Assembly (NCBI GenBank): GCA_045590955.1 | Contig: JAZNSB010000003.1 | Span: 2,888-66,887, forward strand | Direction: 5' to 3' | DNA from: Alphaproteobacteria bacterium | GTDB taxonomy: Bacteria > Pseudomonadota > Alphaproteobacteria > RF32 > CAG-239 | DNA length: 64,000 bases | Shown here: positions 4,491-52,672 of the stretch, one piece after another | Layout: the number at the start of each line of letters is the position of its first letter | How positions within the stretch are numbered: position 1 is the stretch's first letter | Translations under genes and position numbers: made by a program | Notes under the pieces: model-generated | The model's input: only the letters and a program-made list of their open reading frames with translations | Database searches by the model: none | What the model was told of the DNA's origin: nothing

Positions 4491-6727
4491 ACATGGTCCG
4501 GTTTTGAAATTAAACCTTCTTCTTCCATTCTATCAATCAAAGAAGCTGCTCTGTTATATCCTATGCGAAGCCTTCTTTGTATATAGCTTGTTGAGGCTTT
4601 TTTATCAGCAAGAACAATTTCAACAGCTTGTTTGTATAAATCGTTGTCTGAAGAAATTCCTCCAAAAGACGTATTATCAAAAACAGCAGAACTGTCTCCT
4701 GCAGAAGAAGTTTCTCCTTCTGTAATACCTTCAATATATTCGGGTTGTTTTTGTGTTTTTATAAATTCAACAACTTTTTCTATTTCTGCTTCTTTAACAA
4801 AAGCTCCGTGTATTCTGATAGGTTTTAAACCTGCAGGCATGTATAGCATATCTCCTTTACCAAGGAGTTGTTCTGCACCTTGTTCTCCTAAAATGGTTCT
4901 ACTGTCTATTTTTGATGTTACTTGGAAGGATATTCTTGCAGGGAAGTTGGCTTTTATTGTTCCTGTAATTACATCAACAGAAGGTCTTTGGGTTGACATA
5001 ATCAGGTGAATACCTGCAGCTCTGGCCATTTGAGCAAGTCTTTGAATAGCTGCTTCTACATCTTTTCTGGCAACCAACATTAGATCAGCCATTTCATCAA
5101 CAACCACAACAATGTAAGGAAGCGGAGATAAATCCATTTCTTGTTCTTCATAAATGGGAGCTCCGGTTTCTTTGTCAAAACCTGTTTGAATTGTTCTTTT
5201 ATATGTTTTTCCGCTGGCTTTAATTTCTTCAACTTTTTTATTATAGCCTGTTATATTTTTAACATTTAATTTGGTCATTGCCCTATATCTGTCTTCCATT
5301 TCTTTTACAGCCCATTTAAGGCCTATAACAGCTTTTGACGGATCTGTAATAACCGGTGTGAGCAAATGTGGAATGCCGTTATAAACAGAAAATTCAAGCA
5401 TTTTTGGGTCAATCATAATAAATTTACACTCGTCAGGTGTTTTATTAAATAAAATGGATAATATCATAGAGTTAACACCAACAGATTTACCTGATCCGGT
5501 TGTTCCGGCAACAAGTAAGTGTGGCATACCGGATAGGTCTGCATAAATATTTTTTCCACCTATATCTTTACCAAGAACCACATTTAGATTGTTTTGAGAG
5601 TTTATAAAATTATCATCTTCAAAAAGTTCTCTTAACCACACAGTGTTTCTACTGGAATTGGGTATTTCAATACCTATTGTTTTTGAGCCAGGAATAACAG
5701 CAACCCTGACAGATTGAACACCCATAGATCTGGCAATTTCAGGAGCAAGAACAATAACTCTGGCAATTTTTATTCCTGGAGCAGGTTCAAGTTCATATAA
5801 AGTTACAACAGGCCCCGGATTGGCTTTTACTATTTTACCTTCTACGCCAAATTCTTTTAATACGCTTTCCAATTCAAAAGATGTTTTTTCTAAGTCTTTT
5901 TGCGAAAGAGACGTAACTGAATTTTTATCTTTTGACTTTGTAAGTAATTCAAAAGATGGTTTAACATAAGAATCAACAACAGAAACAACTCTTGTTTTTT
6001 CAATAGGTTGAACAGGTGTTTTTAATGTTTTTTCTTCTTTTTTATTTACTTTCTTTTTAGGTGTTTTGCGCTCAATTCTTGTAGGTGTTTGTCTTTTGAA
6101 AATAATGGACCAGGCAAAAAAACCTATAATCATGATTATTTTGAAAATTAAAAACAAAAATCTGTAGATGTAGTTGCAAATTTTTAACCAAAACTTGTAA
6201 TTTATACCAACGGAAAAATTAAATGACAAAAAGCTTAAGAGTGAAAAAACAGTAATCAAAATATATTTGGTTAAATTTGAAGGATATAGGTTGTTAGCTA
6301 AGCTAAAAACAAACTCTGAAATTTTATATCCGGCAAGCCCGCCTAACTTAAATAAATTAAATTCTGTTGGAATAGAGTTTAACGAAATGGAAAGCGTTAA
6401 CACACCCAAAATAAAGGCAAAAAATCTTGAATAAGGACATATTAGTTCTTCTTTTTTTAAATTACTGTATCCCCAGAATAAAGGTGCAATTAAAAATATA
6501 ATTAGAGAAAAACCAAACCAATGAAGAATAAAGGTGGCAAAATTTGCTCCTGTAGGGCCAAAAAAGTTTTTTACTGGTAGAGAGTTTGAAATTAGAAAAG
6601 AACTGTCTGTAGGGTTGTAAAAAACGCAACTACCCCAACAAAAAACAACAAACATCATAATGCCAAGACCTGTTGCTTGTCTGAGTATTTGTTTAAATAT
6701 GTTTTTTTGTTTTTTGCGTTTTGCCAT
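4469..6727 (-). CDS. ftsK: DNA translocase FtsK
   Basis: N-terminal polytopic membrane region, a linker, then the FtsK/SpoIIIE motor with Walker A GTTGSGKS and a C-terminal gamma (winged-helix) domain. Confidence 0.9.
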   Translation of the reverse strand: MAKRKKQKNIFKQILRQATGLGIMMFVVFCWGSCVFYNPTDSSFLISNSLPVKNFFGPTGANFATFILHWFGFSLIIFLIAPLFWGYSNLKKEELICPYSRFFAFILGVLTLSISLNSIPTEFNLFKLGGLAGYKISEFVFSLANNLYPSNLTKYILITVFSLLSFLSFNFSVGINYKFWLKICNYIYRFLFLIFKIIMIIGFFAWSIIFKRQTPTRIERKTPKKKVNKKEEKTLKTPVQPIEKTRVVSVVDSYVKPSFELLTKSKDKNSVTSLSQKDLEKTSFELESVLKEFGVEGKIVKANPGPVVTLYELEPAPGIKIARVIVLAPEIARSMGVQSVRVAVIPGSKTIGIEIPNSSRNTVWLRELFEDDNFINSQNNLNVVLGKDIGGKNIYADLSGMPHLLVAGTTGSGKSVGVNSMILSILFNKTPDECKFIMIDPKMLEFSVYNGIPHLLTPVITDPSKAVIGLKWAVKEMEDRYRAMTKLNVKNITGYNKKVEEIKASGKTYKRTIQTGFDKETGAPIYEEQEMDLSPLPYIVVVVDEMADLMLVARKDVEAAIQRLAQMARAAGIHLIMSTQRPSVDVITGTIKANFPARISFQVTSKIDSRTILGEQGAEQLLGKGDMLYMPAGLKPIRIHGAFVKEAEIEKVVEFIKTQKQPEYIEGITEGETSSAGDSSAVFDNTSFGGISSDNDLYKQAVEIVLADKKASTSYIQRRLRIGYNRAASLIDRMEEEGLISKPDHVGRREVY

Positions 6728-6843
6728 GTTTTTCTCCTTATAAACAGTGTTATTCTAATCTTTATAAATTAACATCAGATTAAAAACTTGACTTTTTTAC
6801 AATAATAATTCACCCTGTTTTTGAAACTTTTGAAAGGATATTT

Positions 6844-7797
6844 ATGACAAATGCTTTTGTTTTCCCGGGACAGGGATCTCAGTATATTGGGATGGGAAAA
6901 TCTCTGTATGAAAATTTTTCTTCTGCAAAAAATGTGTTTGAAAGAGTTAATAATGCGCTTTCTCAAAATCTTACAAAAATAATGTTTGAAGGACCGGCAA
7001 ATGATTTGTCTTTAACAGCAAATACACAGCCTGCTATTATGGCTGTTTCTATGGCGGTAACAGAGGTTTTGAAAAAAGATTTTGATTACGATATTACAAA
7101 AAAAGCAAAATTTTTTGCCGGTCATTCTTTGGGAGAATATTCTGCGCTATGTGCAACTCAAATGTTTGATTTGGAAGATACAGCTAAGTTACTCAAAATA
7201 AGAGGAGAAGCAATGCAAGAAGCTGTTCCTTTAGGGAAAGGCGGAATGGTTGCTGTTTTGGGGGTTGGTGTAAAAGATATTGGTGATTTGATAAAAAATG
7301 CTTCTGATGATAAGTTTTTTTGTGTAATGGCTAACGATAATGCCGACGGACAAGTGGTGTTGTCAGGTCATACAGAGGCAATAGACAAAGTGTGTGCTTT
7401 AGCGCCGGAATATGGTGCAAAAAGATGTATTAAACTGCCAGTTTCTGCGCCGTTTCATAGTCCTTTGATGCAAAAAGCTGCAGAAAAAATGGCAGAAGCG
7501 TTAAACAATGTTAGAGTTTATAAACCGCTGGTACCTGTGGTTGAAAATGTTGTGGTAACACCGTTAGAAAACGAACATGAAATTATAACAAGATTAATAG
7601 AGCAGGTTGTGTGTCCGGTAAGGTGGAGAGAAACAATGACCTTTTTTGAAGAAGAAGGTATAAATAAATTTATAGAGCTTGGTGCCGGAAAGGTTTTAAC
7701 AACAATAGCAAAAAGAAACATGAACAATGTAATTTGTATAAATTTAGAAAAACCGGAAGATATAGAGGTTTTTGTTAGAGGAGAAGAAAATGTTTAG
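6844..7797 (+). CDS. fabD: Malonyl-CoA:ACP transacylase
   Basis: FVFPGQGSQYIGMG and the active-site GHSLGEYSAL. Confidence 0.9.
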   Translation: MTNAFVFPGQGSQYIGMGKSLYENFSSAKNVFERVNNALSQNLTKIMFEGPANDLSLTANTQPAIMAVSMAVTEVLKKDFDYDITKKAKFFAGHSLGEYSALCATQMFDLEDTAKLLKIRGEAMQEAVPLGKGGMVAVLGVGVKDIGDLIKNASDDKFFCVMANDNADGQVVLSGHTEAIDKVCALAPEYGAKRCIKLPVSAPFHSPLMQKAAEKMAEALNNVRVYKPLVPVVENVVVTPLENEHEIITRLIEQVVCPVRWRETMTFFEEEGINKFIELGAGKVLTTIAKRNMNNVICINLEKPEDIEVFVRGEENV

Positions 7798-8527
7798 ATT
7801 AGACGGAAAAAAAGCTTTAGTAACCGGAGCCGCAGGCGGATTAGGCGATAAAATCGTTAGAACACTTCATTCTTTGGGAGCAACAGTTGTTTTAACAGAT
7901 ATGAATGCTCAACCAATGAATGAGATTAAAGAAGATCTCAAAGAAAGAGTTTTTGTTTTTGCAGCAAATCTGTCAAACGATGAAGAAGTAAACAATATGG
8001 TAAAAAGTATTGAGGAACAAGTTGGAACAATTGATATATTGATTAACAACGCCGGGCTTACCAGAGACAATTTGTTTATGAGAATGTCTGATGAAGAGTG
8101 GCAACTTGTTTTGGATGTTAATTTAACGGCAGGTTTTAAGTTAGCACGAAAGCTGATTAGACCGATGATGAAAAACAGATGGGGAAGAATTATAGGAATA
8201 GCATCCGTTGTTGGAGCAATGGGCAATCTTGGACAAGCAAATTATGCTGCTTCAAAAGCAGGAATGGTTGCTATGAATAAATGTTTGGCTCAAGAAATTG
8301 GTTCTAGAAACATTACTGTTAATTCTGTTGCTCCAGGGTTTATCAGAACAAAAATGACAGATGTATTGCCAGAGAATGTTAAAGAAGAATTGATGAAAAA
8401 AATTCCTTTAGCTCGACTTGGCGAGGCCCAGGATGTTGCAAATGCTGTTGCTTTTTTGGCATCTGAAGAAGCAGCATATATTACAGGACAAACAATTCAC
8501 ATAAATGGTGGAATGGCAATGATTTAA
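7790..8527 (+). CDS. fabG: 3-oxoacyl-ACP reductase
   Basis: SDR TGAAGGLG Rossmann motif and the YAASKAG catalytic motif. The ATG at 7790 follows a GAGGAG RBS and overlaps the fabD stop. Confidence 0.9.
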   Translation: MFRLDGKKALVTGAAGGLGDKIVRTLHSLGATVVLTDMNAQPMNEIKEDLKERVFVFAANLSNDEEVNNMVKSIEEQVGTIDILINNAGLTRDNLFMRMSDEEWQLVLDVNLTAGFKLARKLIRPMMKNRWGRIIGIASVVGAMGNLGQANYAASKAGMVAMNKCLAQEIGSRNITVNSVAPGFIRTKMTDVLPENVKEELMKKIPLARLGEAQDVANAVAFLASEEAAYITGQTIHINGGMAMI

Positions 8528-8546
8528 GTCAAAAAAGGTATTAAAA

Positions 8547-8574
8547 AACCCCGCATTTTGCGGGGTTTTGTTTT
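8547..8574. terminator. Bidirectional rho-independent terminator between the convergent fabG and hydA genes.
   Basis: AAAAAACCCCGCAttttGCGGGGTTTTGTTTTT: a 6-7 bp GC stem flanked by an A-run and a T-run. Confidence 0.75.
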
Positions 8575-10346
8575 TATCTTTTAGCATATTTTGCTCTTGG
8601 AACATAATGCGTATGCAATAGTTCGTGAGCTTTGCCTTTTCCTGCTTCTCCCAAAAATTCTGTATATACTTGTTTTACAGATTCATTGTGGTGAGATAAT
8701 CTATTTGATGAATTTAGATCTTCTTTTAATAGACCTTGAGCTCTTTTTGCTCTGATTTCATCTGTAATTCCTCGGGGTTTTGGTTGATCAGGAAGCATTA
8801 CCCTTGGTTGTCCGCCACCGGCGATACAACCGCCACGGCAAGCCATAACCTCTACAAAGTGGTATGGAAGCTCTTCATTGTTTGCTTTTGCGTTGCGAAT
8901 CTGGTCTAACACTGTTTCAACATTTTTTGCACCGTGAGCAACTGCAATACGAACCTTTGTTCCGTTAATGTCTATTTCTGCTTTTTTGATACCGTCAAGA
9001 CCAACCACATCAACAAAATCTATGTTTCCAAGCTCTTTGCCTGTTACATAAAAGTATGCGGTTCTCAATGCTGCGGTCATTACGCCGCCGGTTACTCCAA
9101 AAATGGTGCCGGCACCGGTGTATTCTCCAAGAGGAGAATCTGCCGGTTCTTCAGGAAGTTTTCTGAAAGCAATACCGGCTTGTTTTATCATGCGACAAAG
9201 CTCTCTTGTGGTAAGAGAAACGTCAACATCTTGATAACCGGAAGAAGACATGTCTTCAGAACGCTGAATCTCCCATTTTTTGGCAGTGCAGGGCATAACC
9301 GAAATCACACGAATGTTTGCCGGATCAAGATTCATTTTTTGAGCATAATATGTTTTTGCTAAAGCACCAACCATTGCTTGAGGTGATTTGCATGTAGAGA
9401 AGTTTGGTATCATATCTTGATGATATTTTTCCATAAGATCAACCCATGCAGGACAACAAGATGTCATCAACGGCAGTTTTTCAGGTTCTGATGTAAATCT
9501 TTTTACAAATTCTGTTGCTTCTTCAATAATTGTTAAGTCAGCACCAAAGTTTGTGTCAAAAACCTTGTCAAAACCAAGTCTGCGCAATGCTGCATATGTT
9601 TTTCCTGTTAAATTTTCTCCAAAATCATAGCCGAACTCTTCGCCAATTGCTACTCTTACGGCAGGAGCAATTTGAACAATGGTTGTTATGTTTGGGTCAT
9701 TTATCATGTCCCAAACTTTTTGTGTTTCGTCATATTCAACAATTGCACCTGTCGGACAGTGAGCAGAACATTGTCCACATTTTATGCAAGGGCTGTCTGC
9801 TAAAGGAATGCCACCGGCGGCAGAAATTCTTGTGGCAAGACCTCTGTTTAAGAAGCTTAGAGCCCAAACGTTTTGTTGGTTTTGACAAACGTCTACACAG
9901 CGTCCACAAAGCACACATTTATCTGGGTGTAAAACAATAGATTTAGTAGAATCGTCGGAAGGCAACCCTTTTACCAAAGATGGCAAATCTTCATTTTCAA
10001 TACCGAAAGAGTGTGCCAAATCTTGCAATTCACAATGTCCTGAGCGCAAACACGTTAAACACTGATTAGGGTGTGCTGACAAAATAAGCTCTAAAACAGA
10101 TCTGCGAACAGAAACAATTTCTGGATCTGAGGTGATAATTTTCATTCCTTCAGCAACAGGTGTGCAACAAGATCTTAAAATTCTACCATTAACCTTTACA
10201 ATGCATATACCACAACCGGCAGAAGGGTCTACATCGGGGTGCTTACAAAGGGTTGGAATATCAATTTGAACGGTTCTTGCGGCTTCTAAAATGGTTGTAC
10301 CCTCAGGAACATCTACTTCAAATTTATCAATTGTGATTTTTACCAT
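8574..10346 (-). CDS. hydA: [FeFe]-hydrogenase catalytic subunit (group A, M3 architecture)
   Basis: N-terminal plant-type 2Fe-2S domain. The His-ligated cluster HPNQCLTCLRSGHC. Two ferredoxin-like CxxCxxCxxxCP motifs. H-cluster motifs L1 TSCCPAWV, L2 MPCTAKKWE and L3 EVMACRGGCIAGGGQP. The ATG at 10346 sits 1 nt after the hydB stop, with a GGAGGA RBS. Confidence 0.9.
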   Translation of the reverse strand: MVKITIDKFEVDVPEGTTILEAARTVQIDIPTLCKHPDVDPSAGCGICIVKVNGRILRSCCTPVAEGMKIITSDPEIVSVRRSVLELILSAHPNQCLTCLRSGHCELQDLAHSFGIENEDLPSLVKGLPSDDSTKSIVLHPDKCVLCGRCVDVCQNQQNVWALSFLNRGLATRISAAGGIPLADSPCIKCGQCSAHCPTGAIVEYDETQKVWDMINDPNITTIVQIAPAVRVAIGEEFGYDFGENLTGKTYAALRRLGFDKVFDTNFGADLTIIEEATEFVKRFTSEPEKLPLMTSCCPAWVDLMEKYHQDMIPNFSTCKSPQAMVGALAKTYYAQKMNLDPANIRVISVMPCTAKKWEIQRSEDMSSSGYQDVDVSLTTRELCRMIKQAGIAFRKLPEEPADSPLGEYTGAGTIFGVTGGVMTAALRTAYFYVTGKELGNIDFVDVVGLDGIKKAEIDINGTKVRIAVAHGAKNVETVLDQIRNAKANNEELPYHFVEVMACRGGCIAGGGQPRVMLPDQPKPRGITDEIRAKRAQGLLKEDLNSSNRLSHHNESVKQVYTEFLGEAGKGKAHELLHTHYVPRAKYAKR

Positions 10347-51519: not shown

Positions 51520-51553
51520 AAAAAAGAGCAGACAAGTGTTTGCTCTTTTTTGT
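51520..51553 (+). terminator. Rho-independent terminator after pnp
   Basis: AAAAAGAGCAGACAagtgTTTGCTCTTTTTTG. Confidence 0.7.
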
Positions 51554-51625
51554 TGCAAAAAGGACGAAATGATGCTAAAGTGTTGGCTCAAATGTATTTT
51601 TATTAGACGAATTAAGTTAAACTAA

Positions 51626-52135
51626 TTGACTGAAAAGGCAGTCATAAATAATTGTGTTATGGAAAAAAAACCAATACCGATGCCTCTGGGGTTTAAAGTT
51701 GAAGTAAAATTTCTTGCGGCAGAGCAGGTGTCAAAAAACAACGTGTGCTCTACCATGGTCTTTGAACGAGAAGGAAAATCTTGCTACTGTGTATGGAGTG
51801 GAGATTATACCGGAAAAGGACCTTGCAGGGGCTATTTGGTAAGAAAAACAGACGTTCCCGGCGAATGGATTGTCGCCAAGGGTGAGTTGGTAGAAAAGTA
51901 TCTCCAAGAGGTAAATTTCTGGGTGAAGAAAGCGGTTCAAATCGTAACCGGCAAGGCTGACGTGGAGGTTGATTACTCCTGTGGTCAGACCTTATTCTCT
52001 AACGAACGCAAATATAAGCGTTGCTATGAAATTTTAAATGAAAAACTTGGGTTTCCTCTTGAATGGATGGGGTTGTCTAAAATGGACTATGCCTTGATGA
52101 TTTATGAGAGAAACGGCATTTTTAATGAAATCTGA
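51626..52135 (+). CDS. Hypothetical Cys-rich protein (169 aa) with no recognisable domain.
   Basis: A clean ORF with about ten Cys residues. The local GC is visibly higher than in neighbouring genes. A possible alternative start is MEKKPIP at 51659. Confidence 0.45.
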   Translation: MTEKAVINNCVMEKKPIPMPLGFKVEVKFLAAEQVSKNNVCSTMVFEREGKSCYCVWSGDYTGKGPCRGYLVRKTDVPGEWIVAKGELVEKYLQEVNFWVKKAVQIVTGKADVEVDYSCGQTLFSNERKYKRCYEILNEKLGFPLEWMGLSKMDYALMIYERNGIFNEI

Positions 52136-52136
52136 T

Positions 52137-52637
52137 ATGAAAAAAGAGACATTAAAAAACGAAGTTACGAACGAAACTTATCCTTGTGAAATAAAGGTAA
52201 AATCAGGAAAAGCATTGCGCCTAAAAATTACGGCTGCAATCGGAGATCGTTCGTGTGGAACAGTAATAGCCTCAGGAACGGCTTTACAGTGTTTTATAAA
52301 AGGCCAATTTGCCGTGGGAACAGTTCTTGATGTGTTGCCGATTGAAATTTCGTCAGAAAACGGCATGTGGCAATGCGTTCATTGGTCAAGGGTGATGGAG
52401 GTTGCAAACGCCATTAAAGAGGAGGCCAGAATTATAGATGCGAGATTTGCTTTCGGAAGAGGTAAAGACAGCGAATATGATTTTGAAGATTTTCTTTTTG
52501 CCGGAACAAAAGGATATTTGACATATCTGGAAAAAGTAACAGCTTTGATAGATGTTTTTCCAGAAATTTCAAATTGTACGGCCCCGCTGAAAATGAAAGA
52601 TGCCATACAGGCAATTTTGCGGGAAAACTTGGATTAA
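52137..52637 (+). CDS. Hypothetical protein (about 166 aa) with no recognisable domain, directly coupled to the preceding ORF.
   Basis: ATG 1 nt after the upstream stop (alternative ATGs at 52104 and 52125). Followed by a strong terminator. Elevated GC. Confidence 0.45.
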   Translation: MKKETLKNEVTNETYPCEIKVKSGKALRLKITAAIGDRSCGTVIASGTALQCFIKGQFAVGTVLDVLPIEISSENGMWQCVHWSRVMEVANAIKEEARIIDARFAFGRGKDSEYDFEDFLFAGTKGYLTYLEKVTALIDVFPEISNCTAPLKMKDAIQAILRENLD

Positions 52638-52672
52638 AAACACGGGCTCTCTAAAGAGCCCGTTTTTTTTGC
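52637..52672 (+). terminator. Rho-independent terminator after the two-gene cassette
   Basis: AAAAACACGGGCTCTctaaAGAGCCCGTTTTTTTT. Confidence 0.8.

Follow-up and report, generated by a model that had tools for sequence, protein, structure and literature searches.

What occupies the space between the housekeeping genes pnp and rplY was asked for a stretch of 64,000 nucleotides (nt) from an alphaproteobacterium (GenBank assembly GCA_045590955.1, contig JAZNSB010000003.1, positions 2,888 to 66,887 of the forward strand), which is called the window below. A sequence-only reading of positions 51626-52672 had described two back-to-back open reading frames (ORF1 and ORF2) between two terminators, and had proposed that this cassette was acquired horizontally and might be a toxin-antitoxin (TA) or a compact defense or stress module. 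The two ORFs encode small soluble proteins of a previously undescribed, very narrow family in an uncultured gut-type alphaproteobacterium. Very probably, they form a genuine bicistronic operon which exists as deeply diverged alleles in a slot that lies between the terminator of pnp and the promoter region of rplY, and whose content is replaceable. Between strains that share 97-98% of their sequence elsewhere, about 40-45% of the sequence of the pair is different, and this suggests protein pairs that are strain-specific and can be swapped.

Relatives of the two proteins were rare. An exhaustive phmmer search with ORF1 over 1.84 billion representatives returned one cluster, P0003, with 60% identity. 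This search covered ORF1 only; the ORF2 relative P0005 was obtained with a two-sequence ORF2 profile. A word-index protein search returned only the window's own proteins and missed the 60%-identical P0003, so its negatives need caution. The P0003 contig, L162 (Logan SRR29277954, 3.46 kb), carries rpsO', pnp, ORF1' and ORF2' in the same gene order as the window. A second contig of that sequencing run, L168, has a 21-nt overlap with the end of L162, located at the terminator palindrome, and continues into rplY, pth and ychF'. The second allele is L162 joined to L168, and the join depends on this overlap within one sample. A third allele was found on the 750-bp contig L163 (ENA ERZ28436051), which holds the 3' part of ORF1, ORF2 (P0005), the terminator and window-like sequence upstream of rplY. 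At the amino acid (aa) level, ORF1 was 58-60% identical to P0003 of L162 and 83% identical to L163 over the C-terminal 82 aa, and ORF2 was 52-56% identical to P0004 of L162 and 48% identical to P0005 of L163. The two genes are separated by 1 nt in the window and by 6 nt in L162, and they overlap by 20 nt in L163; the bicistronic order was kept over all three junctions. Cluster look-ups showed that all four proteins were singletons in a collection of 15 billion proteins. The known family has three members, all at one locus in one lineage. Exact-sequence look-ups with the RplY, YchF and PNPase proteins of the window gave no further strains.

The genes on both sides of the cassette were nearly identical between the window and the second strain. 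In pnp, the window and L162 shared 96.8% of nt and 99.6% of aa, with 0.153 synonymous (dS) and 0.003 nonsynonymous (dN) substitutions per site. The right flank, rplY-pth-ychF' in L168, was 98.0% identical over 1458 nt, and Pth was 100% identical in aa sequence. In contrast, the cassette overall was only about 55-60% identical in nt and 52-58% in aa to that of this conspecific strain. For ORF1 the aa identity was 58%, with a dN of 0.35 and a dS of about 2.3; for ORF2 it was 52-56%, with a dN of 0.36-0.41 and a saturated dS. Identity per 100 nt inside this island of divergence was mostly 34-67%, with one segment at 79%, at the 3' end of ORF1. The borders were sharp: identity to L162 collapsed immediately past a promoter-like site on the left, and the right border fell in the terminator stem. 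Since dS was saturated in the cassette and only 0.15 in the flank, the alleles are far older than the split of the strains, which points to replacement by flank recombination or to a long-maintained polymorphism. In the explanation that we propose, whole alleles would be swapped by homologous recombination through the conserved flanks, and their source would be unsampled relatives or old polymorphism kept within the species.

In each of the three alleles the frames remain open, although the nt sequences diverge by 40-45%, and the pairwise dN/dS was 0.06-0.33 in all six comparisons (ORF1, 0.06-0.15; ORF2, 0.17-0.33 or dS saturated). Therefore, both ORFs are protein-coding and constrained, and both genes are under purifying selection. 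The constraint was uneven along the proteins. In ORF1 about 45 N-terminal aa were variable and about 110 C-terminal aa were conserved, and over the N-terminal 45 or so codons the proportion of nonsynonymous differences (pN) was about equal to that of synonymous ones (pS). In ORF2 the N-terminal half was variable, with an insertion of about 21-24 aa relative to the other alleles, and about 65 C-terminal aa were conserved. The N-terminal parts of both proteins are nearly free to vary. The protein encoded by ORF2 evolved faster than the conserved part of ORF1, with a dN of 0.40 compared with 0.076 between the window and L163 at equal dS. The isoelectric point (pI) was 8.1-8.3 for ORF1 and 4.8-5.6 for ORF2 across the alleles.

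Both ORFs lie on the + strand. ORF1 is open from a TTG at 51626 (169 aa) to the TGA at 52133-52135, and ORF2 begins with the ATG of the junction TGAtATG, 1 nt after the ORF1 stop; the lengths of about 169 and 166 aa and the 1-nt junction of the sequence-only reading were confirmed. For ORF1, however, the TTG is not the preferred start: ATG 51659, used in the NCBI annotation, or ATG 51680, which corresponds to the L162 start MGIKV, is more likely, and the motif ATG..GGGnTTAAAGTTG at the ORF1 start was common to the window and L162. The public ORF2 model P0002 (NCBI; 177 aa, from ATG 52104) probably begins too early, because the MKKE start at 52137 is common to the L163 allele, where it lies at ATG 251. 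The likely starts of both genes are corrected in this way. There was no clear Shine-Dalgarno sequence ahead of either ORF start in the window. The ORF2 starts of the window and L162 lacked one although host genes use one, which would fit reinitiation after the ORF1 stop, and the 1-nt spacing suggests that the two genes are translationally coupled. In L163, a strong GGGAGGA box precedes, by 8 nt, an ATG that lies within ORF2 and in its frame.

We considered whether the ORFs could be spurious or decaying. The absence of a clear Shine-Dalgarno sequence in the window, the similar pN and pS at the ORF1 N-terminus and the low confidence of the structure models described below would agree with this, but the open frames in three strongly diverged alleles, the low dN/dS, the conserved C-terminal halves and the GGGAGGA box of L163 contradict it, and we regard it as very improbable. 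By our own calculation, the chance of an open frame of 160-170 codons is about 5e-6 (at 36% GC, stops should make up about 7% of codons), and two successive open frames which fill the space between the terminators are not due to chance.

The features of the locus are collected in Table 1. The left flank consists of S15 (rpsO) and PNPase (pnp), and the right flank of L25 (rplY), Pth and YchF followed by a SpoU methylase; Pfam confirmed the housekeeping identity of S15, PNPase, L25, Pth and YchF, as had been read by eye. Scans of the window for tRNA and Rfam RNA genes gave no matches. The expected absence of transmembrane (TM) helices from both proteins was supported by a maximum 19-residue Kyte-Doolittle score of 1.3, with no family match. 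The description of ORF1 as Cys-rich held only weakly, as the protein has 6 Cys in 158 aa, of which 3 are conserved between alleles, and has no CxxC motif.

Table 1. Coordinates of features at the pnp-rplY locus (positions of the window; dG, folding free energy).
Feature	Position	Strand	Description
pnp intrinsic terminator, conserved left border	51520..51551	+	15-nt arms, 93% complementary; dG -19.8 kcal/mol, z -4.1
Promoter-like site	51553..51581	+	TTGCAA 51553-51558, 17-nt spacer, extended -10 TGcTAAAGT 51573-51581
Divergence island, replaceable allelic unit	51584..52640	+	leader, ORF1, ORF2 and part of the terminator stem; about 1.06 kb
Leader hairpin/palindrome	51627..51644	+	TGACTG-AAAAGG-CAGTCA, 15 nt upstream of ATG 51659; dG -7.1 kcal/mol
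ORF1	51659..52135	+	158 aa; alternative starts TTG 51626, ATG 51680; soluble, pI 8.1
ORF2	52137..52637	+	166 aa; soluble, acidic, pI 5.6
Cassette intrinsic terminator, right border	52636..52670	+	stem 52642-52663, then 8 T; dG -17.5 kcal/mol, z -5.1

The two terminators that had been seen to enclose the cassette were both borne out by their folding energies. The pnp terminator was kept in L162. The stems of the cassette terminator in the three alleles (about positions 689-709 of L163 and 12-32 of L168) varied by paired substitutions that preserve the hairpin, and the T run and the sequence downstream of it were near-identical across all strains. The promoter-like site has a counterpart in L162 (about 2444-2472), which reads TTGCAA-N17-TGtTATAGT and likewise follows the pnp terminator directly. 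The window site was read from the sequence with 8 of 12 matches, under the scan threshold of 9 of 12, and its promoter function is a prediction. The leader palindrome also differed between the alleles. In L162 (2507-2524, AGGCTG-AAAAGG-CAGCCT) the loop was identical, and two of the six stem pairs were altered on both sides. Judged from these two sequences, the palindrome could act either as a hairpin in the RNA or as an operator in the DNA whose sequence varies along with the allele. A separate 20-nt inverted repeat (90% complementary) was observed within ORF2 at 52516-52574. It overlaps the codons of the conserved LEK and VFPE residues (GGAAAA/TTTTCC) and probably results from the coding sequence itself.

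The site was compared with other species at 160 loci that contain pnp, drawn from genomes and metagenomes. The adjacency of pnp and rplY proved not to be conserved in alphaproteobacteria: besides the cassette-bearing strains, rplY-pth-ychF followed pnp at only two of these loci, L004 and L082. In L082, whose pnp product is 80% identical in aa sequence, the gap holds two tandem paralogous membrane proteins (6152-7594; Smith-Waterman z 32), both of which end in a ...SFHPFR... motif and match no family. In L004 (pnp 75% identical in aa), the slot at 8185-9796 is filled by a minus-strand ORF of 361 aa together with a small, 112-aa membrane ORF that has one N-terminal hydrophobic segment, and neither of these matches any family. 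The window ORFs did not resemble the slot genes of L004 or L082; a 'YCVW...' string shared by eye between ORF1 and the small L004 ORF was rejected (Smith-Waterman z 0.4). In the other close relatives, L001-L003 and L083, different genes follow pnp. As judged by gene content, the pnp-rplY site is therefore a slot of small size and variable content, where sister species hold unrelated genes, and the cassette does not belong to the housekeeping genes.

The sequence-only reading had held that the same two genes at this position, with matching GC, in many related genomes would indicate ancestral housekeeping genes. Such genomes were looked for, and the genes were absent from the sister species. The view that ORF1 and ORF2 are ancestral housekeeping genes of the lineage can appeal to the same genes, order and position in two other strains. 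However, the genes are missing from L004, L082 and every other alphaproteobacterial pnp locus fetched, they match no conserved family, their products are 52-58% identical where PNPase is 99.6% and Pth 100% identical, and their GC content at third codon positions (GC3) is 0.33-0.45 compared with 0.26-0.29 in their neighbours. We therefore consider this view extremely improbable.

Base composition was examined because a clearly elevated GC content had been claimed. The GC content of the cassette region was 40.3%, against a window mean of 36.0% (standard deviation 2.7), which places it in the 96th percentile for segments of equal length. The claim was overstated for total GC, since the neighbours have 38-40% (pnp 38.2%, rplY 39.5-40.6%, ychF 38.8%), but it stands for GC3, which was 0.45 in ORF1 and 0.33 in ORF2, compared with 0.26-0.29 in pnp, rplY and ychF. 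In the other two alleles GC3 was 0.41-0.45, so that the excess was present in all three alleles as a foreign-like composition. GC judged by eye is a weak guide here, and it is the comparison of strains that identifies an exchangeable accessory cassette. The idea of horizontal acquisition was upheld to the extent that the cassette behaves as an accessory, foreign or exchangeable unit, as it is absent in sister species, forms a 1.06-kb island and has a raised GC3.

Recent acquisition through a mobile element or its remnant, such as a prophage or an integrative element, would also account for the raised GC3 relative to core genes and for the absence of the cassette from sister species. The surroundings of the cassette, however, contain neither an integrase, a transposase or a tRNA nor att-like direct repeats or insertion sequence (IS)-type inverted repeats, and searches of phage, plasmid and IMG/VR sequences gave no relatives. 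The sole IMG/VR match, L081, was treated as chance: it is the portal protein of a phage, in which the 8-mer QEVNFWVK, used as the search pattern, also occurs. That three diverged alleles occupy the same site, with conserved promoter and terminator borders, also points to a cassette that has long resided there and is exchanged by way of its flanks, not to an insertion. Arrival by a mobile element is thus improbable.

The two proteins were also compared with known families and structures. Searches of Pfam, NCBIfam, PADLOC and PHROGs with all alleles gave no match at threshold, and with PADLOC (PADLOC-DB v2, 5,027 models) the window proteins had no match at E<=1. Below threshold, ORF1 of L162 alone matched the ThsB TIR-like model of PADLOC (E 0.036, 11.9 bits), one ORF2 allele matched Latrotoxin_C (E 0.0037; 17.5 bits, where the cut-off is 25), and the C-terminal part of ORF1 matched ANAPC3 (E 0.0035 and 0.096), a weak hint of a single tetratricopeptide repeat (TPR)-like helical hairpin. 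These matches were scattered and disagreed between alleles. Sequence and profile searches of the PDB gave nothing significant; threonyl-tRNA synthetase (ThrRS), the CHK2 FHA domain, phosphoglucomutase (PGM) and RelE appeared at E 0.008 to 2, and the matches gained at most marginally from profiles. AlphaFold2 models made with no alignment were uninformative, with predicted local distance difference test (pLDDT) scores of 43 and 35. Foldseek was run on these models against the PDB, as had been advised, and gave no match below E 0.97, as expected from such models. A full-text literature search returned nothing relevant.

Three specific assignments were rejected. A class II aminoacyl-tRNA synthetase anticodon-binding domain was considered for ORF1 on the basis of a single chain, 6vu9 (ThrRS), which matched one sequence at E 0.008-0.009. 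This match was lost with a two-sequence profile and had an E of 0.13 with a three-sequence profile, and there was no Pfam match, to the HGTP_anticodon family or otherwise. For ORF2, a domain III/IV fragment of an alpha-D-phosphohexomutase (PGM) was considered from PDB profile matches (E 0.06-1.4) over G.W....W-x22-FGR-x5-YD[YF]E. It was ruled out, as ORF2 scored 8 bits against the PGM of a related species (L002) and had no Pfam PGM match at E<=10. Finally, ORF1 and ORF2 are not taken as paralogues of each other: the BLASTP E value was 3.7, and the hhalign score of 16 was reached in 36 of 300 column shuffles.

The TA or defense label was therefore not supported by any significant PADLOC, Pfam, NCBIfam, PHROG or PDB match for any allele. 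Nevertheless, a toxin/antidote-like, co-evolving pair is the most likely single mechanism, and we put it forward tentatively, as a possibility. The products of ORF1 and ORF2 would be a cognate pair made in fixed proportion through translational coupling. In a reverse-order arrangement, the basic, more conserved ORF1 product would be the effector and the acidic, faster-evolving ORF2 product its neutralizer, and the allele-specific leader palindrome would be a candidate autoregulatory site. Circumstantial features make this the most plausible specific mechanism, namely the coupling, the co-divergence, the basic/acidic pair, the variable slot and the palindrome that co-varies with the allele. When the evolutionary description and the toxin/antidote mechanism are taken as one proposal, our confidence leans slightly to the side of doubt.

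The cassette resembles toxin-first type II TA systems (HigBA, HicAB, MqsRA) in several respects. It consists of two small coupled cytoplasmic genes, adjacent and co-oriented, with one promoter-like site and one terminator of their own. The first product is basic and more conserved, and the second is acidic and faster-evolving; a palindrome lies near the promoter-like site, and the locus is accessory and strain-variable. Unlike type II TA systems, it shows no sequence similarity to toxin or antitoxin superfamilies, among them RelE/ParE, MazF/CcdB, PIN, HipA, Fic/Doc, GNAT, HicA and MqsR (the nearest PDB profile match was RelE, 7etr, at E 2), and no DNA-binding family, of the HTH, RHH, AbrB or Phd type or otherwise, was matched. 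Both proteins are also larger than typical antitoxins. TA and defense families are usually broad and mobile, whereas the members of this family occur at a single locus of one lineage.

Several points weigh against the toxin/antidote interpretation. No allele matches toxin, antitoxin, immunity or defense families in PADLOC, Pfam, NCBIfam, PHROGs or the PDB, and there are no mobility genes, flanking direct repeats or phage or plasmid relatives. Both proteins have about 150-166 aa and no recognizable DNA-binding domain, and the AlphaFold models, at pLDDT 43 and 35, are uninformative. The palindrome lies downstream of the -10 element and not over the promoter, and was seen in two sequences only. 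Only three alleles are known, two of them on short contigs, and the family is tiny, with singletons and one ORF1 cluster among the 1.84 billion representatives.

A lineage-specific, fast-evolving accessory operon unrelated to conflict, for example an adaptor or regulator pair in a permissive slot for new genes between two operons, is the main alternative, which we hold to be quite possible. It agrees with the lack of homology to conflict systems, the very narrow distribution, the purifying selection on both genes, the weak ANAPC3 (TPR-like) hint in ORF1 and the other orphan genes with which sister species fill the slot. However, fast protein evolution alone cannot explain a dS above 1.2-2.3 beside a flank dS of 0.15. 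The strains split long after the cassette alleles had diverged, so exchange or a maintained polymorphism is still needed.

Other known systems share parts of the pattern. The Staphylococcus agr groups and the Bacillus comQXP pherotypes are allelic specificity loci bounded by conserved flanks. Like these, the cassette is a sharply bounded hypervariable segment in near-identical chromosomes, with adjacent genes that diverge together and alleles older than the strains. The agr and comQXP loci encode a secreted peptide, a processing enzyme and a membrane receptor, whereas both cassette products are soluble, lack a signal peptide and TM segments, and have no homology to these proteins. In polymorphic toxin/immunity pairs, the toxin combines a conserved N-terminal trafficking part with a variable C-terminal toxin domain, and its immunity gene follows. 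The cassette proteins show the opposite pattern, as they are variable at the N-terminus and conserved at the C-terminus, and they have no secretion signal or trafficking domain. Chromosomal hotspots between core genes carry defense and accessory genes. The pnp-rplY slot is like them in that its site is fixed, that related species (the window, L082 and L004) carry unrelated genes in it and that it has no integrase; it is unlike them in that the cargo is only 1-2 kb and matches none of the 5,027 PADLOC models.

A broader form of the cognate-pair proposal, which we regard as unlikely, would make the cassette the founding family of strain-specific cognate pairs, acting as toxin/antidote or in intracellular self/non-self recognition. 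Its alleles would be ancient and balanced, and would be held in a fixed slot and moved by flank recombination only, with no mobile-element machinery. If the pair is a cognate toxin/antidote or specificity module, it would represent a new protein family in bacterial conflict systems. The locus would also show, as a clean case, how idiomorph-like alleles are held at a site of the core genome, in a group of gut alphaproteobacteria that has been little studied. The small variable slot between pnp and rplY is documented here in any case.

An exact look-up with RpsO returned four short contigs, all of which ended before the cassette. Three metagenome contigs (L164-L166) encode an identical RpsO protein and are 85-88% identical in nt to the window. 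They stop at one common point, about 90 nt inside pnp (equivalent to 49465 in the window), where variation between strains may have broken the assembly.

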